Origin: Justusliebigvirus VEcB
Direction: 5' to 3' (one strand)
DNA: 64,000 nt
Sequence record: OZ035773.1
Part shown: positions 8,138-38,261 of the stretch, one piece after another
How the letters are laid out: each line of letters begins with the position of its first letter
Numbering within the stretch: the first letter of the stretch is position 1
The notes under the pieces: model-generated
Told to the model about the DNA's origin: nothing
What the model saw: only the letters and a program-made list of their open reading frames with translations
Database searches by the model: none
Translations under genes and position numbers: made by a program

Positions 8138-11100
8138 TCAGTGACAAGTTGACCATGAACTACCAACATCGTAACCAGCAGTGAGAGGTACATTAAGATT
8201 GTAATACTCACCAGCTTTATTAACAGCGATAGATGCTAATTCTCCGGCACGACTGTAGGCTGTAAACCAACCACCTTTCGGAGATTCATGTACGTTAGCC
8301 CAAATCTTGCCAGTACGTTTCTCTTCCTCTTCTTTCCAGGCATTAACTTTATCCAAACATTCTTTATCAATTTTCTTTTGTTCTTCTGGATCATCAACTT
8401 GAGTCCAACCTAAAGATTCTTTAGAGAACCATTTAAAATGCACCAGATCACGAGTTACTTCAAGCTGTGCTTCATCGTGATATGCAATCATTTGTTGAAC
8501 GAATGACTTATTTTTCCAGTCATCAACAAAAAAGTCAACAGCTAATCCTTCTTCTTCGATAAGATCGTCGTAGATAACCATTGCTCTTTTTGCACAAATA
8601 ACACCACCACTCTGGAACAGAGAGTTAAGTATTGCGTGTGCAGATCGTGTAGGTACTTTTCTACCATCAATACCGAGAATGTATTTCTTACCTGTTTTAA
8701 CCCAAAAATCATGCAGACGTTCTTTAAGAAGCGCAAGAGGTTTTGCAGCTTCCCAGAAAGCATCGTATACAAGCTGTCCTGTATACATATCACTACCTAT
8801 AGTTTTTGCTACTTTTGCAGCTTGAGCACCATAAGTAATACCATACTTAACAGATTTAGCAGGGCTTCGTTCAAACTTACGACCAATAGTGTCAGAAATA
8901 CGTCGAGCCATCATTGTATGAACATCATTAGGTTTTTCCAATAATAGAGCATTACAATATTCGTGTGGTTCCTGCTCGTACCGCCAACAGTTTCCTGTGA
9001 TGGTAATGCAGTCTTTCTGACGCATGACCCACGTACCAAGTTCTGTTTGTGGACACCAAACATCCTCTACACCCCACTCTTCAATAGTCAAACTTTGAAC
9101 AGGAATGTGAGAGCGGTTAGCCAATGTTGCCACTTTTACTTTCTGCTCTTTTGTATTGAAAGCTACAGAGATATTGCCTCCATGCACCAGGTACGAGGCA
9201 GTTAAAGCTGCTTCAAAAAGTTCACCTGGGTTCTGCGCCCAACGCCAAACAGGTTTTTGTTTATGTTCGTGCCAGTAACCATCTGCAATCAAGAAACCTT
9301 CCAAGAAAGCTACACGCTCGGCATGAGACATATTAACTACACGCTCTACCCACGGAACATCCCATTTACCTTGTTGAACAGAAGTTAAACTATTTACCTG
9401 ATCTTGTTCCATGTTAAATGGAGCATTACAAATAATATTATCTCCTGTGCAAAGCTCGGCAGTTGTTCTGACTTTAGGCACATAAGTATTCCCTGTACTA
9501 CGAGTATTAACATACCAACGGTGATCTGCTGTTGCACGATAAGTATGGGATTTTCCTTTAATCTCAAACGTCTTACTATTTTTATAGAAGACCTTACCTT
9601 TTACTTTAGTCCATTCTTTAAGTCCTGTTTCTGGGTTATATCCTAAGATTTCATCCCCTTCTTGTAGATCGTGATAACCAACCCAACCTTTACGGGTTAG
9701 TGCTTGTGCATCCATAGGTACACAGTAGTGTGATTCTATTTTTGCCTCAAGAGAATCAAAGTCATAACCAATTTGGAAGTATTTTGGAACTTCTACACCA
9801 AATAAGTTACGCATTTCATATCCGTACAGAGATGTTACACGTGGGATATTTGCTACTAACCTATGTTTCATACGAGACGTAGCTGCATCACACGTTGCAG
9901 CAGGAGTTGGTATACGACCATCAGCCCTTACTGCTGCCAGATAACCTTTATCGTAATCCTCTTCATCTTCTTCCCAATCAGCACCACCCCCTAGAATAGA
10001 GTTCCTACGGTGTTTATATGTAAGATACTGCACAATCTGCGTAGCATAAGGAAACTTTTCACCTAGTGCTTCCAAATTAGGACAAATATCTTTCTCTTGC
10101 CCTTTTGTAAAGGAAGGGTTAGTAAGCACTTTAACACCACGACCTTTAGCTTTAGCAATACGATCTCTTAGTTTCCATTCCAAAGTTTCTGGTGTGCACT
10201 CCAGATGATCACATCTGTCCTGGCAGAAGTTAGATGCTAACGTTTGATCAACATAGTCACGAATAGCTTTCTCCATCTGTGCTTCATCTTTCTTAATCTT
10301 AGTGCCAGATTTAAGAGTGATATCTTTATCTTTATATTCAGATGGACTCCAACCTAAACCAACTAACCAGTTTTTAATATGTGTAGTGTCGTCTAAAGTA
10401 GCAGGTACTGTAGGATCACAAATAGGTTCTTCTGCTGGAATAGGTAGTTTAAACTCTTTACCTAGTGCAAATAACCACCAACCATCTTCTTTTTGTACAA
10501 GTTCACCAGAATGTTTCTCTGCAAACTTTATCATGTTACTTGAAGGTTCACCATTCTTTTTAAACTGGAGTTTAGGTGGAATGAATGATTTCAAATAACC
10601 TTTGGTAGCAGGTTTAGGAGGTAGCACAGGTTCTGCCTCTAAACGACATGCTTCCATTCGAGCATCCAGATCACGAATATTATCTTCTGCTTGTTTCATA
10701 TTGAAAGCAAAGCCACGGTGCTCTTGACGTGTAATAATATCAGCTACACGTTGTTCTAAGTTAAATGGTTCAGACCACTTATTATAATCACCCCACTCTT
10801 CCATCAAATAACGGAACACTGCGGTGTTAGCTTTGTTATCGTAAATACAGTAATACAGCATATCTGCTGCAAATGTTTTAAATCTTTCAGTTTCAGGAAT
10901 GTTTTTTCTAAAATCAATTTTAACATCCCCTCCAGCTTTCTTAGATAACTCTGCCAGACTATGACCACCGAAGCGATCAGGGTTTAGTGTCTTACTTAAG
11001 ATCATAGTATCACAAATTTCAATGTTACTATTACCCCAAGTATTGTACTTAATACTGTAGTTGAGTTTAAAAAATAATTTAATTGCCAGTAAGTCAAAGT

Positions 11101-11452
11101 TAATGATGTTATGTCCAACTACTTTGGTAATTTTATAGTTTGAATTACCTTTAAATTTACCTGTTCCATTTACAAAATCAGGAAAATCTTTAAGAGGGAA
11201 ATGGGTATATTCTAAATGCTCATATTCCTCCAGTCGGTATTCATACTTTCCGTCAGTCTCAACATACGGACGACCATCGAAAAGATATTTATCACCATCA
11301 TGGAAAGCAATAATCTCTCCAGTATCATGACTTTCGCACACAATACAGTGCATTGCAAAACTATCTTTTAAACGGTATGGACTTGCCAAGTAATCTACAC
11401 TTTCGTCATTAAGCAAGTTGTTACTTTCAATGTCGAAAGTAAAAGCTCCCAT
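8138..11452 (-). CDS. DNA polymerase, family A, interrupted by an intein
   Basis: Exo I FDIES; motif A DFDSLEAKI; motif B RSPAKSVKYGITYG; motif C YHDEAQLE; 245-aa in-frame insertion immediately after motif A. Confidence 0.9.
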   Translation of the reverse strand: MGAFTFDIESNNLLNDESVDYLASPYRLKDSFAMHCIVCESHDTGEIIAFHDGDKYLFDGRPYVETDGKYEYRLEEYEHLEYTHFPLKDFPDFVNGTGKFKGNSNYKITKVVGHNIINFDLLAIKLFFKLNYSIKYNTWGNSNIEICDTMILSKTLNPDRFGGHSLAELSKKAGGDVKIDFRKNIPETERFKTFAADMLYYCIYDNKANTAVFRYLMEEWGDYNKWSEPFNLEQRVADIITRQEHRGFAFNMKQAEDNIRDLDARMEACRLEAEPVLPPKPATKGYLKSFIPPKLQFKKNGEPSSNMIKFAEKHSGELVQKEDGWWLFALGKEFKLPIPAEEPICDPTVPATLDDTTHIKNWLVGLGWSPSEYKDKDITLKSGTKIKKDEAQMEKAIRDYVDQTLASNFCQDRCDHLECTPETLEWKLRDRIAKAKGRGVKVLTNPSFTKGQEKDICPNLEALGEKFPYATQIVQYLTYKHRRNSILGGGADWEEDEEDYDKGYLAAVRADGRIPTPAATCDAATSRMKHRLVANIPRVTSLYGYEMRNLFGVEVPKYFQIGYDFDSLEAKIESHYCVPMDAQALTRKGWVGYHDLQEGDEILGYNPETGLKEWTKVKGKVFYKNSKTFEIKGKSHTYRATADHRWYVNTRSTGNTYVPKVRTTAELCTGDNIICNAPFNMEQDQVNSLTSVQQGKWDVPWVERVVNMSHAERVAFLEGFLIADGYWHEHKQKPVWRWAQNPGELFEAALTASYLVHGGNISVAFNTKEQKVKVATLANRSHIPVQSLTIEEWGVEDVWCPQTELGTWVMRQKDCITITGNCWRYEQEPHEYCNALLLEKPNDVHTMMARRISDTIGRKFERSPAKSVKYGITYGAQAAKVAKTIGSDMYTGQLVYDAFWEAAKPLALLKERLHDFWVKTGKKYILGIDGRKVPTRSAHAILNSLFQSGGVICAKRAMVIYDDLIEEEGLAVDFFVDDWKNKSFVQQMIAYHDEAQLEVTRDLVHFKWFSKESLGWTQVDDPEEQKKIDKECLDKVNAWKEEEEKRTGKIWANVHESPKGGWFTAYSRAGELASIAVNKAGEYYNLNVPLTAGYDVGSSWSTCH
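8990..9724 (-). mobile_element. Intein in DNA polymerase (245 aa, Cys1 ... Asn245, +1 Cys)
   Basis: Begins CVPMDAQ (codon TGT at 9722-9724), block B TADH, ends ...DCITITGN followed by Cys; internal FLEGFLIADGYW resembles a LAGLIDADG motif; host protein without it is 859 aa. Confidence 0.75.
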
Positions 11453-21688: not shown

Positions 21689-21921
21689 TACACATTCTCC
21701 TCTTTTACCAATTCCATCGTTGAACTATCAAAACCATCTTTAGAAGAATAGGTATAGACAGAACGTAGTTCTCGCAGGACAGTAAATACATTAGGATCAT
21801 CTAACCAAGCATCCTGGAGGAGAACATAACGATCTTCATTGTCATACTGGACAGCGATCATAGAACCAGACAGTTTGTAAATTTTAATATTCATAATATA
21901 TTTCTCCTTAAAGTAGACCAC
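21688..21921 (-). CDS. Hypothetical small protein
   Basis: Intact ORF. Confidence 0.35.
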   Translation of the reverse strand: MVYFKEKYIMNIKIYKLSGSMIAVQYDNEDRYVLLQDAWLDDPNVFTVLRELRSVYTYSSKDGFDSSTMELVKEENV

Positions 21922-23011
21922 GTTTAACAGTTTGAATCATACCATCTTCAAGAGATTGCACTTCCTGAATGTAATCAATACGAGCAGCACGGGCTTCAGT
22001 GTTGATCCGATTAGTTTCTTCCAACATTTTAACTAAGTTTTCTTGATCGCGACGTAATGTCTCAATATCCAATACTTGACGATTAGCAAGTTGTGTAGCT
22101 TCAATTTGGTTTTGTGCAGCCAGATCACTACCCATTGCAATAGCAGCATTAAACTCATTCAGTACATTGTTCTGTGTATCGGCTGCTTTCTTCTGGCGTA
22201 GACTTTCAATATACATAGAAAAGTTTGCAGAGTAAGCAGGAATAACATTATTCACAATATTACGGGCTGATCGCATCAAACTTGCAGATACTTTCTGCAT
22301 ACTTTGTACACGTGGCCCCATCTGAACACACAGTAAACGCAAGGCTTTCAGGTCTGCAATACGAATTTCAAGCAGATCCATAGTATCACGAGTACGTTGA
22401 CGCTCTTCTACTTCATTTTCAGGTAGTGTATTAAGGCGAACTTCTTCTTTTTCATAAGTAGCTGTTAGAAGCTCTATATCCCTGTTTAAGCTAAGAGCAT
22501 ATTTTGCAATAGCCTCTTCTAAACGTTGCAGATATCGTAAAGAATCTTCTTCTTTTTTCAAGTCTGTTTGGAGTGTCTTTACCAAACCTTCAATACGATT
22601 ATTGATGGTGTCAAATTCACCAAACAAATCTTCTTTCATACCTAATACTTTCTTAACTAGCTTACCTAAGCCTTTAGATTGTTTAATAGAGTTAGGATCA
22701 AGTTGCTTTGCTTGCTTAATAAGTGCAGTTAAACGTTCACTCATTTCATCTCCCTGAGATGAACGCTGGTGTTTAAGCACTTCAGCATTAAGGTTACGAA
22801 GAGTAAGTCCTGCATCAGCACCAACCTGTTCAATCTCTTCACGAGACATTGGAGGCAGCATTTGTACAGGTCGTGCAACAGCAGGGGCATATACAGGGCT
22901 TGCATCCATAGCACTTGGAGCAAACAAAGACTTACTTTTTTCTGTTGTTGCCGTGAATACACTCATTTCAGACGGTTTGCTTTTTACGGCACTGATAAAA
23001 GGACTGGACAT
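21908..23011 (-). CDS. Coiled-coil protein, possibly TelA-like
   Basis: About 370 aa, predominantly helical/coiled-coil, sited between TerD/vWA and TerC genes; assignment by context and composition only. Confidence 0.3.
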   Translation of the reverse strand: MSSPFISAVKSKPSEMSVFTATTEKSKSLFAPSAMDASPVYAPAVARPVQMLPPMSREEIEQVGADAGLTLRNLNAEVLKHQRSSQGDEMSERLTALIKQAKQLDPNSIKQSKGLGKLVKKVLGMKEDLFGEFDTINNRIEGLVKTLQTDLKKEEDSLRYLQRLEEAIAKYALSLNRDIELLTATYEKEEVRLNTLPENEVEERQRTRDTMDLLEIRIADLKALRLLCVQMGPRVQSMQKVSASLMRSARNIVNNVIPAYSANFSMYIESLRQKKAADTQNNVLNEFNAAIAMGSDLAAQNQIEATQLANRQVLDIETLRRDQENLVKMLEETNRINTEARAARIDYIQEVQSLEDGMIQTVKRGLL

Positions 23012-31535: not shown

Positions 31536-31814
31536 CATTATGTTCAAAGTGGCTCGCAAGGCCACTCCCGCACCATTACGTGCTGCTGCATGTCACCATG
31601 CAGATCAGACTATATCTTCATGCTTAAAGCATGTCTACCATTTGGGGTGTCATAGGCTTACACCCTACGCTGCTACATTCATCACAGCTAGTCGTTAGGC
31701 ATTTCGTAATAGTACCCCCTTCTTCTGTGTTGGGAGTTCTGTTACGTTTAGCACGGGATTGTCTCGTTGAGAGTTCCCCCGTTTAGGCAGATTTTACATG
31801 AGCAGTTATAGTTT
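31536..31814 (-). ncRNA. Group I self-splicing intron (ORF-less, 279 nt) in nrdD
   Basis: Exon 1 ends ...AUGGGU, intron ends ...AUAAUG (omega G); intron GCUCAUG can pair with exon CAUGGGU to form P1 with a U-G at the splice site; R-like GCCUAACGACUAGCU and S-like AAGAUAUAGUCU elements present (P7 GACUA/UAGUC). Confidence 0.75.
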
Positions 31815-32672
31815 ACCCATGCTTGTGACGCGACCATCTGAAGATCCTGTAACTTCTTTGTTTAAAGGTACAGAGATAAAATCAGGATAAATGCGTTCAG
31901 CACAACACTCCATTGCCAGTTGCTTCAAATCATAGTTTGGATCGCCAGCTTTCATGTTAACACCATCTTCCAAGAAGAAGATAACTTTAGGAAACACAGG
32001 AGTTACCCTATCTTTTCCCAACCCTTGTTTGTGCACCATTAGGTAGTTTTTAGTGATCATTCTACCAAAAGCAGAGGTATCCAAACCTAAACTAATTGTT
32101 ATAAAAGGTGACTGACCATTTACACTCATTAGAGTGTTCACTTGGTAGATTAAAGTTTGCATTGCATCATAGACCTGTTTATCTACCATACGCATAGCAA
32201 TATCATAATCGCCAACATCGGCATATATTTTATTAAAACTTGCTTTAACGTATTGACTAAGCCCAGTATCAACATGTGCACAAGTTTGTCCACCATATTG
32301 GCTAGAAGCTACTGCTTGAATAATTTGAGTTAGGACAGTAGTCGCTACACCGATAGATTTTGGTTTTTCAATATGTGCATTACCAATACGGAAACCGTTC
32401 TCAAGCATATCTTGGTAATTTACCAGGCAACAATTAGTTAAAGGTGAGAGTAAATAATCTAAATCGTGGATGTGACCATACCCACTTTTATGCCATTCTG
32501 CTAAATCTTCCGGTAAAATATGGGTCATTGCCATGTGCTTGCTTAGGATACCTGCTAGTAAGTCTCGGTGAGTATTAACAATCATTGCAGGTTTGTTTGC
32601 ATTTTCACGAGTAAATTCTTCGGATGTTTGTTCGAGGAATCCGATTACATCCTCATATAGTTTTTGGGTCAT
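31815..32672 (-). CDS. nrdD: Anaerobic ribonucleoside-triphosphate reductase, exon 1
   Basis: N-terminal half of the reading frame; GGAGGA RBS upstream; terminates 2 codons past the proposed 5' splice site. Confidence 0.8.
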
Positions 32673-35008: not shown

Positions 35009-37783
35009 TTAGTTTACCAGTTTATTTATATCTGGTAAAAGATTTATTTCACCTAAGAAATCACCTTCACCTTCCTCTAGCCAACTCTCATATGCTTGTG
35101 CATGATTATAGTTACCATCAAAAGAATCTGCAACAAATTTTTCTACAGTTTTTCGAGATGTGCCAGCACCAAATACACCAAGTTTAATACCATTGATCGG
35201 TAAAGTGGTGCTTGTGGGTACTTTCTCTGTTGCAACACGGTTGATATCTATAATCTCCTGTACGGTTGTATTCCATTGTAAGCATTTAACACAACGGGTA
35301 TGCGCTACATACAGTAGGTTTCGCTCTGCCTCTTCTAGTCCTACCCATTCACCAGTCTTTTTATCATAATTGGAAGGAAAATCATTAGCAACAATAACCT
35401 GATCCCACTCCAAACCTTTAGACTTGTGTGCTGTAGTCAATGTGACTTTTGCTGTAGGAGAATTTCTATGCGTTCTAAGGGTATGTGCTATAGTGTTTGC
35501 CTTACCAGAAACTACAATGTTTAACAAGCGTTTAGCATCTGGATCAGCCTCTGCACACTCAACAAATTCATCCCAGTCTGCGTAAGGTAATACAGTTTCA
35601 TGTTTTACTTTCTCAATATCTCCTCTCCGAAGAGCATTAACACTATCTACCATAGAGATAAAATCCCTGGTATCTACGTTAATAATAATTTCTTCCCCAT
35701 CTGCAATACGATCCATTGCCTCCATAAGCAAGGTTAAATTCTTGCGAAAGATGATAGTGTAAGGTTTTGTATAGTCTACAACATCTGATTTGTAGCTACC
35801 TACTACAGTATCAAAGCCTTTACCAACCAAAGGATGACGCAAAGGTTCTTTATCGCTTAAAATCATATTGGCAATGTTTGCCACTTTGGGGCCAAAACGG
35901 AAGCAAGCAGTTAATGGAAGTTCTGCCCCATACTTAGCTGTTTCAATCATCATATTAGAGCTACCTCTAAATTGATAAATGCAGTTGTGGCTAAGAATTT
36001 CATTGCCAAAGAAGTTAGCAGTATCCTCTACTTCAATATCATAATAGATACCCTCACTATCTACAATGTCCACAATCTCTTCTGCCGTTACAGTATCACC
36101 ATCTTTTACCAACACAGACATGCCTTTAAACAAACCCGCTGCCGGAATTAAGTTATATTTGGCACTGTTCACAGAGGACATGCATTCTTTTAAAGATGCA
36201 AACGGAACTATTTCAAGGATCTTTTGTGCAAAACTCAATGCTTCACGATAAGAATTGAAATATTTACGTACACGGTAACGACCTTCCAATTTAGCAGCAC
36301 TTACGCTTACACCTGCTTTAATCAGTGAAGAATAGATCGGCATTTCACTTTCTGTCCACTCAAAACTAACTTGTGTTCCTTTACAACCTTGCGCTCGCAA
36401 AGTCACTGTTAGCATTTTTCTTTCATCTACTGCACAATTGATGCTGTGCCAGTGTGGATAAGCAAAATGATAATCTTTATCCTCTAAAAGTTTAAAACCA
36501 TTTTGTCCGAATTGTTCAAAGATGTTATTGATCTTTTCTTGATTAATGCCGCGTGAACTTGCTTCAAATACACAAGTAGGAATGCCATATTGTAAACTGT
36601 AAGCCATTTCTTTTTCCATAGCAGCTTCACGGTTTTCAACAATATCCAACACCCATAATTTCTGTGCTTTTTCAGAACGTGTACGTTGCCCCAGTTTAGA
36701 AAAACCTTCTTTATCATCGAATTTGTTAGTGATCCCTACTCGGAAACCTAAATCTTTCCTCCACATTAGGTATACCACCATCTGATCATCTTTCAGAACA
36801 TAGGATGAAGCCCAAATACGATGGTTATGTGTCATATCTAAAGTTTTACCTGTGGCAGTAATAATATTCCTACCTTTTGTACGTGTAGATAAAGTCTTAT
36901 TTGTTACTTTTCTAAATGTAATTTTACCATTAGAATAAGACTCTACCTTATCACCGATTTGTAGGTCTTTCATTGTAACCTGACCATTCTCGGTATTAAG
37001 TACCGTGTTTTCCGACACACATTGGAATTCGTCACCCACTACCACAATTTGTTTTGCAGATTTAGCATTTCGCAGAATAGACAAGAATGCAGGGTTAACA
37101 TCCTGGAATTCATCACCAAAAATAATATCATAACCAAGATCAGCACCAGACAATTCAAACAATTTTACATAGGTGTCATGCGTCATCAAAGTATCTGTAT
37201 TAGGATCAATGCGCTCTCGCCACAATTGTTTTGCATACTTAACTACTTCTGTAATTAGTTTGTGTTCGTTAATACCTTTTCTTTTAATATCTGCAAGATG
37301 TACACTAGGAAAATGTTTACGGCTGATAAAAGGATCATCCGAAAATTCAAACTTACCTACGGTTTGCTTGATCATTAAACCGATCATAGCACGAGTTAAA
37401 AGTGTTTTCCCTCGTTTATCAATAAGATTATTAATCTTAAATTTCTTTGCTATCTCGCTACCTGTACCTGCAACGTTAACATACTGTCCTTCTGGTCGTG
37501 ACAGTTTTGCACGTAAACGATGGTCCAGGAATTGATAGCAAATAGAATGCAATGTACGGCATTCTACATTTAGTGGCATCTTACGTCGTGCTTCTTCTGC
37601 CATGCTTTTATTGAAAGCTAAGTAAAGAATGCGATCTTCTGTACTGTTAGCCAGCAAATAAAGTGTTGACGTTTTGCCTGATCCAGATTTAGCTTGGATA
37701 GTTAAAAAGCGATGGTCTGGAAAAGCCTCCTTAATAGCTGTTTGCTCTTCTGTTGGAGTGAAGCTCAACTCTTTCTTAGCCAT
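35009..37783 (-). CDS. SF1 (UvrD-like) DNA helicase interrupted by an intein
   Basis: Walker A AKSGSGKT, DEFQD box, motif III split as VVGDEFQ | intein | IYQFRGS; start placed at the ATG at 37783 with AGAGAGG RBS. Confidence 0.8.
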   Translation of the reverse strand: MAKKELSFTPTEEQTAIKEAFPDHRFLTIQAKSGSGKTSTLYLLANSTEDRILYLAFNKSMAEEARRKMPLNVECRTLHSICYQFLDHRLRAKLSRPEGQYVNVAGTGSEIAKKFKINNLIDKRGKTLLTRAMIGLMIKQTVGKFEFSDDPFISRKHFPSVHLADIKRKGINEHKLITEVVKYAKQLWRERIDPNTDTLMTHDTYVKLFELSGADLGYDIIFGDEFQDVNPAFLSILRNAKSAKQIVVVGDEFQCVSENTVLNTENGQVTMKDLQIGDKVESYSNGKITFRKVTNKTLSTRTKGRNIITATGKTLDMTHNHRIWASSYVLKDDQMVVYLMWRKDLGFRVGITNKFDDKEGFSKLGQRTRSEKAQKLWVLDIVENREAAMEKEMAYSLQYGIPTCVFEASSRGINQEKINNIFEQFGQNGFKLLEDKDYHFAYPHWHSINCAVDERKMLTVTLRAQGCKGTQVSFEWTESEMPIYSSLIKAGVSVSAAKLEGRYRVRKYFNSYREALSFAQKILEIVPFASLKECMSSVNSAKYNLIPAAGLFKGMSVLVKDGDTVTAEEIVDIVDSEGIYYDIEVEDTANFFGNEILSHNCIYQFRGSSNMMIETAKYGAELPLTACFRFGPKVANIANMILSDKEPLRHPLVGKGFDTVVGSYKSDVVDYTKPYTIIFRKNLTLLMEAMDRIADGEEIIINVDTRDFISMVDSVNALRRGDIEKVKHETVLPYADWDEFVECAEADPDAKRLLNIVVSGKANTIAHTLRTHRNSPTAKVTLTTAHKSKGLEWDQVIVANDFPSNYDKKTGEWVGLEEAERNLLYVAHTRCVKCLQWNTTVQEIIDINRVATEKVPTSTTLPINGIKLGVFGAGTSRKTVEKFVADSFDGNYNHAQAYESWLEEGEGDFLGEINLLPDINKLVN
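35984..37021 (-). mobile_element. Intein in helicase (346 aa, Cys1 ... His-Asn, +1 Cys)
   Basis: Begins CVSENTVLNTENG (block A), block B GKTLDMTHNH, ends IYYDIEVEDTANFFGNEILSHN followed by Cys; inserted in helicase motif III. Confidence 0.8.
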
Positions 37784-37784
37784 T

Positions 37785-38261
37785 TCAACCTCTCTTAATT
37801 TGTTTAACAAGCATAGGAACAAAATCTCGTTTTAAAATTTGTTCAATAATATGATCAGGTAGCTGTTGGAAATTATAATTAAAAGCTACTGTCTCACCTT
37901 TAGGTGTTTCTACCCGCACATATAACATGTTACGAAGTTTATCCACTTGTGCTGTATATTCTAAACCATGTAATTGATGCATTGCAAACATCAAATCATC
38001 AGTTTCAGTTTGGAATCTATCATTTGCTTGCATTAAGGATAAGGTAAAAGGTAGATTTTCCCTAAGAGCCACCTTCTTAGGAACTAGTGAAGGAAAATAC
38101 TCACCAATAACTTCCTGTGTAAGCTGGATACACTCTTTTTCAAGTTGGTTTTGTTCCTTAAGTTCACAAACACTTTTTTGTAAAGTGTTAACCTCTTTTT
38201 GCAAAGCTGCTAGTTGAGCACTTAACTTTCTTTTTTGATTACGACCAAAACGTTTAGACAT
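37785..38261 (-). CDS. Hypothetical protein
   Basis: Intact ORF, N-terminal coiled coil. Confidence 0.45.
   Translation of the reverse strand: MSKRFGRNQKRKLSAQLAALQKEVNTLQKSVCELKEQNQLEKECIQLTQEVIGEYFPSLVPKKVALRENLPFTLSLMQANDRFQTETDDLMFAMHQLHGLEYTAQVDKLRNMLYVRVETPKGETVAFNYNFQQLPDHIIEQILKRDFVPMLVKQIKRG

Follow-up and report, generated by a model that had tools for sequence, protein, structure and literature searches.

The window analysed here is a stretch of 64,000 nucleotides from Justusliebigvirus VEcB (record OZ035773.1), a phi92-like Escherichia coli phage (Justusliebigvirus, Stephanstirmvirinae), and it contains on its minus strand a gene for a UvrD/Rep-type helicase of superfamily 1 (SF1) whose motif III is interrupted by 346 codons. 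We find that this insert has the sequence blocks and the predicted fold of a class 1 intein, and that it is a bona fide intein we regard as nearly certain. Its central domain (aa ~78-297, ~220 residues) appears, from sequence comparisons, to belong to an undescribed family that is neither LAGLIDADG nor HNH. Considering all evidence, we put the probability at roughly 80% that the element is a real splicing-type and homing-type intein with a functional central domain of this non-LAGLIDADG, non-HNH kind.

The helicase region is 99.4% identical to that of phage Antha and 98.4% identical to that of phi92. Counted from an ATG, the intein-containing precursor comprises 924 residues (35009..37783, minus strand), and these limits match the coding sequence annotated in phage PaulScherrer. 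In the list of open reading frames (ORFs), the frame extends up to a TTG (35009-37822); the true start is likely the ATG at 37783 (MAKKELSF...), as annotated in sister phages. Pfam recognises the domains UvrD-helicase, UvrD_C and AAA_19, and in PHROGs the protein matches phrog_1967 (DNA helicase) with E=1e-161. The N-extein (37022..37783, 254 residues) provides motif I (GSGKT), motif II (DEFQD) and the first half of motif III (VVGDEFQ), whereas the C-extein (35009..35983, 324 residues plus the stop codon) begins with the Cys+1 codon (35981-35983) and provides the second half of motif III (CIYQFRGS) together with UvrD_C and UvrD_C_2. When the insert was removed, the Pfam UvrD-helicase score rose from 45.3 to 65.9 bits and the match became continuous across the motif III junction; the spliced sequence scores 65.9 bits with PF00580 and 42.7 bits with PF13361, and GSGKT, DEFQD and the joined GDEFQ-CIYQFRGS are all present. 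In base composition the two parts are nearly equal, the G+C content being 36.9% in the intein and 37.7% in the exteins.

The intein itself (35984..37021, minus strand) reads CVSENTVLNTENGQ...NFFGNEILSHN and fills exactly the 346 codons between VVGDEFQ and CIYQFRGS. It opens with Cys1, carries block B as T64-H-N-H67 (TxxH) and block F with Asp328, and ends in His345-Asn346, followed by Cys+1. An earlier note on this DNA, made from the letters by eye, had placed an intein of this length here, splitting motif III of an SF1 helicase and equipped with the canonical terminal blocks. Translation of the helicase ORF returned the coordinates and quoted peptides of that note exactly, the flanks and the intein-less alleles described below confirm the split, and every one of the terminal blocks is present; the proposal is thus borne out on each feature that can be tested computationally. 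The intein feature in the PaulScherrer GenBank record corresponds to window positions 35981-37021 and is one codon longer; because it includes the Cys+1 codon, the boundary given in the earlier note is the conventional one. Splicing at these borders is predicted to yield the tryptic junction peptide QIVVVGDEFQCIYQFR.

Both ends of the intein contribute to a splicing domain of the HINT type. The N-terminal part (aa 1-75, 36797..37021) is matched by the Pfam families Hint (E=9e-7), Hint_2 (E=3e-4) and Intein_splicing (PF14890), the last aligning with residues 8-346 while skipping the middle (E=2.4e-8, 34.4 bits), and the C-terminal part (aa 298-346, 35984..36130), which holds Asp328 and His345-Asn346, exceeds the cut-off of TIGR01443 (intein_Cterm) with 20.1-23.4 versus 15.6 bits. 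An AlphaFold (AF2) model of the intein, calculated from 31 homologues, reached a predicted local distance difference test (pLDDT) value of 93.8 and a predicted template-modelling score of 0.90, and combined both ends into one HINT fold, with the beta strands of the N-terminal part spanning residues 7-71. In a Foldseek search against the PDB, the HINT part matched the gp41-1, Mtu RecA and NpuDnaB mini-inteins with target template-modelling (TM) scores of 0.81-0.85, and the best E-values were obtained for endonuclease-bearing VMA inteins (E=1.8e-7) and PI-SceI. The LAGLIDADG inteins (PI-SceI, PI-PfuI, TliVMA/PhoVMA) resemble the window intein in that their HINT domain is likewise split by an in-frame insert of about 200-250 residues, and they are its best whole-model matches through the HINT part. 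The window insert, however, has neither the motifs nor the fold of LAGLIDADG proteins, and since the inserts fail to superpose, the whole-model TM reaches only 0.21-0.29. Across the family, Cys1, His67 and Asn346 are each invariant (109/109 members), and position 64 is Ser or Thr in all 109. Compared to the intein of the Klebsiella phage KP2025, the C-terminal HINT part shows a ratio of nonsynonymous to synonymous divergence (dN/dS) of 0.03.

The distribution of the insert among related phages is sporadic, and its absence is exact. For about 37 phage records, a tblastn search with the spliced helicase gave a two-piece match, i.e. an intein-bearing gene. A one-piece match of 1734 nt, encoding a 98-99% identical protein without intein, was obtained for outra, alia, ESCO8 and KKE7M, and the Phapecoctavirus-group records among the matches listed (about 82% identical) are also in one piece and lack the intein. 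When aligned with outra at the DNA level, the insert corresponds to a clean gap of exactly 1038 nt, the empty allele reading ...GGTGACGAATATCAG/AGCATCTACCAGTTCCGTGGAAGC... at the insertion point (a slash marks insertion points here and below). Divergence between the two alleles is concentrated at this point: the window exteins differ from the 1737-nt outra gene by 40 nucleotides, 25 of which fall within -27 to +62 of the site, amounting to roughly 28% divergence there compared to 0.9% elsewhere, and all seven amino-acid differences lie within residues 246-271. The upstream divergent extein tract (about 27 nt, 37022..37048) is 77% identical to the intein-less allele, and the downstream tract (about 63 nt, 35921..35983), which tracks the presence of the intein, is 72% identical; further out on either side, identity is 100%.

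Klebsiella phages provide a second pair of alleles, in which KP2025 (intein-bearing) and phi1_175008 (intein-less) are 97-100% identical away from the site, but the 65 nt immediately downstream of it show only 78% identity. In both the E. coli and the Klebsiella phage lineages, intein-bearing alleles have Cys+1 and then Ser, Ile/Val and Ala along the tract, whereas intein-less alleles have Ser+1, with Gln, Lys and Ser/Ala at those positions. The inteins of the window phage and KP2025 share 89.5% identity at a synonymous divergence (dS) of 0.33, whereas their exteins share about 72% and are saturated in dS. Sporadic spread, exact empty sites, flank tracts linked to the intein and an intein that seems younger than its host gene together form the pattern that homing and co-conversion would produce. 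The intein is also a mosaic relative to KP2025, with a dS of 0.09-0.10 for aa 1-160 and 0.74 for aa 161-300, which suggests that recombination inside the intein swapped the C-subdomain.

We then turn to the central domain, for which the earlier note had seen room for an endonuclease while leaving its type open. The size is indeed right, and the domain proved to be neither of the two usual types: it contains no LAGLIDADG or HNH motif and does not match the Pfam LAGLIDADG or HNH families. Modelled alone, the central region (residues 72-300) reached a pLDDT of 91.7 and consists of three parts, namely a core (81-145), two short helices and an alpha/beta C-subdomain (196-293). In two confident models, the core is composed of strands 81-88, 92-98 and 121-128 and helices 110-116 and 131-145. 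The conserved core segment (aa 78-150, 36572..36790) is thus arranged as beta-beta-alpha-beta-alpha and is a candidate for a GIY-YIG-like fold, and the helical linker with the C-subdomain (aa 151-297, 36131..36571) is possibly DNA-binding. Over 109 inteins, the residues Y84, M86, G92, R94, G96, R113, E117, W123, A134, E138, S142 and P148 are nearly invariant, with R94 and G96 kept in all 109, Y84 in 108, and R113 and E138 in 106 each. The dN/dS compared to KP2025 is 0.05 for the core and 0.20 for the rest of the central domain. The low dN/dS and the residue conservation therefore indicate a working domain and rule out a decaying mini-intein. A hidden endonuclease gene, out of frame or antisense within the intein, was rejected as well, the other ORFs there being just 59-77 aa long.

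To delineate the family, we relied on an exhaustive HMMER representative search with the central region as query, which returned 716 clusters at E<=1e-3; word-index protein searches had found one relative for the intein and nine close ones for I-TevI, and the exhaustive search was used instead. A cluster look-up on the taxonomy of the relatives led only to metagenomic singletons. From the best 150 proteins, 106 full-length inteins were extracted, and residue conservation was counted over 109 inteins. All 106 begin with Cys, they end in His-Asn (97) or Ser-Asn (9), and position +1 is occupied by Ser (86), Cys (19) or Thr (1). About 99 of the 106 occupy motif III of UvrD/Rep/PcrA helicases, at GDxxQ/[SC][IVL][YF]xFRG. 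The annotated 275-residue intein in the UvrD-type helicase gp34.33 of phage SPO1, found also in CampHawk and Goe2, sits at the same point of motif III (GDDDQ/C...THN/SMYSFRGA) and has the central core (YLM..RVG..R..E) in common with the window intein, at about 27-31% identity. It differs in being 71 residues shorter, in lacking most of the C-subdomain (aa ~213-293 of the window intein) and in having Ser instead of Cys at +1. An unannotated intein with the same core (WQHEP/CQPAG...VTHN/CLYGW) was observed in a ParB-like/adenine methyltransferase of a Streptococcus suis prophage (L004, 1361-3472). Because this DNA methyltransferase carries a member, the family is not confined to helicases. The linker and C-subdomain are largely absent from these shorter SPO1 and S. 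suis relatives.

Further members occur in combination. Giant metagenomic UvrD-like helicases of 1800-2500 aa (P0003-P0008, P0014, P0073 and others) each hold two or three inteins of the family, at motif III and at additional sites in motif II (DE/C...HN/CQD), at AHN/C...HN/SKQ and at GTxH/CSPPDEP, and some of these copies look disrupted by additional insertions. The helicase of Klebsiella phage KP13-16 (L003, 527-4123; 1198 aa), recorded as 'hypothetical protein', contains two inteins. The one in motif III is 61% identical to the window intein, and the second, in the Walker A loop (AGTGK/AQPL...VTHN/TSTL), has clear LAGLIDADG motifs and apparently starts with Ala rather than Cys or Ser.

Six of the best 150 matches are not inteins but free-standing proteins of 328-366 aa, which align across the whole intein. 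In these relatives, the splicing residues have been lost (Cys1 in 6/6, the block B His in 5/6, the terminal Asn in 6/6), whereas Y84, M86, G92, R94, G96, R113, W123 and E138 are kept in all six. The selected activity therefore resides in the central domain, and it is mainly because free-standing relatives keep only its residues that we call this domain a homing or DNA-targeting module, an assignment that we consider probable, with some reservation, on the basis of sequence. The surroundings of four of these six genes (P0029, P0053, P0135 and P0072) were retrieved. P0029 (L130, 5001-6002, on a 163-kb phage-like metagenomic contig) is a separate gene located 46 nt downstream of an intact UvrD-type helicase gene, and P0053 (L132, 3340-4392, on a metagenomic contig) lies 11 nt downstream of another one. 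P0135 has no adjoining helicase gene, and P0072 stands at the start of a 1.7-kb contig with its upstream neighbour outside the sequence, leaving three informative contexts, two of them helicase-adjacent. In the helicases beside P0029 and P0053, motif III reads Gln-Ala-Ile-Tyr, and because the +1 residue is Ala, an intein at this site could not splice. Free-standing homing endonuclease genes of phages, such as the seg and mob genes of T4, typically adjoin their target gene. P0029 and P0053 likewise follow directly after a helicase gene, the kind of gene invaded by the intein form, but differ from the seg/mob type in still carrying degenerate HINT ends. They also differ from 'fractured genes' (Dassa et al., 2009, PMC2677866), as the helicase next to them is intact and not split. 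Judging by their sequences, the element may pass between the form of an intein and that of a free-standing homing endonuclease gene.

The predicted order of the core elements, with a three-stranded sheet, is that of GIY-YIG nucleases, a topology found in the I-TevI catalytic domain, the UvrC N-domain, Slx1, YhbQ and T5orf172 homing endonucleases. Conserved residues of the intein family stand at places that may be equivalent, with a Tyr in strand 1, x-G in strand 2, an Arg in helix 1 and A-x3-Glu in helix 2, and GIY-YIG homing endonucleases similarly combine a conserved core with a variable extra module; the loop ahead of helix 1, by comparison, is longer in the intein core. Foldseek against the BFVD viral models returned family members first and then several annotated GIY-YIG endonucleases, as weak matches (E 0.04-0.16). 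We also compared the intein core by hhalign with profiles built from fetched loci, an I-TevI-type profile of 28 sequences and a YhbQ-type profile of 78 sequences, and obtained a non-significant P=0.03 in either case. The likewise non-significant YhbQ alignment pairs VVYLM..FRVGIT with FLYLI..LYTGIT, placing Y84 at the GIY tyrosine and R94-V-G96 at Y-x-G, and in both of these non-significant alignments E138 falls on the catalytic Glu (E75 of I-TevI and its counterpart in YhbQ). Twelve control comparisons with unrelated domains or with one side reversed gave P 0.096-0.88, and two with both sides reversed gave P 0.05-0.066. Derivation of the core from GIY-YIG nucleases, as suggested by sequence and model, seems to us conceivable but somewhat less than an even bet. 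A survey preprint of 2025 (10.1101/2025.01.02.630785) lists as intein endonucleases in-frame LAGLIDADG and HNH, VSR-like, antisense LAGLIDADG and out-of-frame EndoVII-like types; GIY-YIG is not among them. A new type of intein homing endonuclease, in which an in-frame GIY-YIG-derived core and a variable DNA-binding module would be dedicated to the motif III codons in genes for UvrD-type helicases and would alternate between intein-borne and free-standing forms, is a still more tentative proposal.

From intein chemistry, we infer that splicing would follow translation and start with an N-S acyl shift at Cys1, aided by T64 and H67 of block B. The N-extein would next be transferred onto Cys+1, Asn346 would cyclise with the help of His345 and release the intein, and an S-N shift would remake the peptide bond, resulting in a contiguous VVGDEFQ-CIYQFRGS and an active helicase of 578 residues. 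The element presumably is, or recently was, homing. In cells infected by both kinds of phage, the intein protein would cleave helicase alleles that lack the intein, close to the codons of motif III, most likely by means of its in-frame central domain, the core of which is possibly GIY-YIG-derived. Recombinational repair from intein-bearing genomes would then copy the intein and, with it, some extein sequence on either side, about 27 nt upstream and about 63 nt downstream.

Several results weigh against this interpretation or against parts of it. Regarding splicing, the PF14890 score lies 1.4 bits under the gathering cut-off (34.4 vs 35.8), and with TIGR01445 (intein N-terminal region) the score is 18.6-19.8, short of the cut-off of 24.5. 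As to homing, the flank divergence could stem from subsequent adaptation, of exteins or target site, instead of co-conversion, since the window phage and KP2025 share only 77% DNA identity in their intein-bearing flanks. The central domain, taken as the window copy together with 31 diverse members, has no match in Pfam, NCBIfam, PHROGs or the PDB sequences, even at permissive thresholds. With respect to GIY-YIG, the second tyrosine of the motif is Arg94 in the intein family (109/109), there is no match to Pfam PF01541 or PF10544 in the central domain, and a small T5orf172 profile (ICP1 gp88, ORF121, ORF130) gave P=0.33, a scan for further T5orf172 relatives having returned only ICP1 itself. 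The hhalign probability is 1.7%, and because a genuine GIY-YIG family pair reaches P=2.5e-4, we judge the value of P=0.03 to be suggestive only.

The lack of a significant match to any nuclease, in sequence or in structure, would suit an intein that splices but whose central domain is not a nuclease, serving in DNA binding or as a structural element, or being a former endonuclease kept for folding or splicing; inheritance would then be mostly vertical, with occasional recombination. Decayed endonucleases are common in inteins, and this one has become fixed, with 96-99.8% identity, in many phi92-like phages, both of which speak for such a view. We nevertheless hold it to be rather unlikely. The core is under strong purifying selection (dN/dS 0.05), and the conserved Tyr, Arg, Arg and Glu persist in free-standing copies that were stripped of their splicing residues, two of which adjoin intact helicase genes in the manner of free-standing homing endonuclease genes. 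In addition, the intein is better conserved than the exteins across phage genera, and divergence is concentrated in the flanks.

The slightly subthreshold Pfam intein score, together with the presence of BIL2 domains (bacterial intein-like) among the best PDB sequence matches (E about 0.3), could instead be taken to mean that the insert is a permanent HINT-like part of the helicase, which does not splice or, as in the BIL type, only cleaves. This we consider very improbable, given that none of Cys1, TxxH, His-Asn and Cys+1 is missing and that all are invariant across 109 relatives, that the C-terminal HINT part evolves at a dN/dS of 0.03, and that intein-less alleles are exact. Furthermore, because SF1 motif III is split, a retained insert of 346 residues would probably inactivate the helicase. 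Practically no credence remains for a chance resemblance or an artefact of assembly or ORF calling: the same sequence occurs in about 38 independently sequenced phages, hidden Markov models match it with E-values of 1e-6 to 1e-8, its predicted structure has high confidence and there are hundreds of homologues. We thus favour a splicing and homing intein with a functional central domain.

The intein as such is not new, because annotations in BASEL phages and in SPO1/CampHawk and a listing in a survey of UvrD inteins already exist. GenBank carries the counterpart of the window intein as a mat_peptide in the BASEL phages PaulScherrer (MZ501100, bas60_0082) and JohannJBalmer (MZ501084), and the vB_EcoM_ZYD record names an 'intein-containing UvrD'. 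The inteins of PaulScherrer and JohannJBalmer, and the unannotated insert in phi92 gp198 and in about 35 other phi92-like phages, represent the same element at the same site, with 96-99.8% DNA identity. The BASEL paper identified inteins through comparative annotation (PMC8594841), and the BASEL phage records give no endonuclease type for this one. Novikova et al., 2016 (PMC4760082) counted 16 bacterial UvrD inteins in five phyla. These share the host protein family and an insertion in the ATPase core with the window intein; the survey as read for this analysis states neither their site nor their endonuclease type. The statement in a paper in Arch Virol of 2024 (PMC11162368) that no inteins have been reported in coliphages is contradicted by the BASEL annotations and by the window intein. 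Our literature search found no paper describing the window intein or its central domain. Four GenBank records labelled as 'Campylobacter phage' A150, A145, C3 and A110a (MG065639, MG065645, MG065656 and MG065689, with Campylobacter jejuni labels) are 98.5% identical to the window helicase-intein region and have phi92-like genome sizes, and their Campylobacter host labels are probably wrong.

The intein itself is accordingly ordinary, and its analysis mainly confirms a placement made by eye. The value lies in the central domain, which is well folded, strongly conserved and widespread, and which is recognised by none of the family and structure libraries searched. If it is a site-specific nuclease, it would represent a new family of homing endonucleases with the motif III codons of UvrD-type helicase genes as its natural target, and a possible source of new sequence-specific DNA cutters. 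That intein-borne and free-standing forms both occur is relevant to the question of how homing endonucleases become joined to inteins and separate from them.

The window harbours additional mobile elements, two of which the earlier note had named and which we recovered. The DNA polymerase A ORF (8138-11452) contains an intein of 245 residues at 8990-9724 on the minus strand (ESHY/CVPMDAQ...CITITGN/CWRY), which is annotated in the PaulScherrer record. Its last two residues are Gly-Asn instead of His-Asn, and it includes the LAGLIDADG-like motif FLEGFLIADGY. A Pfam search at E<=0.001 did not detect this intein, but the hidden Markov model of the helicase-intein family matched its N-terminal HINT part with E=2.6e-8. 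The intron assigned to nrdD corresponds to a group I intron at 31586-31860 (minus strand), with a full-length match to Rfam RF00028 at 72.5 bits, at the place where a sister phage has its anaerobic ribonucleotide reductase gene. Besides these elements, a 367-aa ORF at 21908-23011 (minus strand), in the replication/early region of the phage, has a Pfam match to TelA (toxic anion resistance) of 118 bits.

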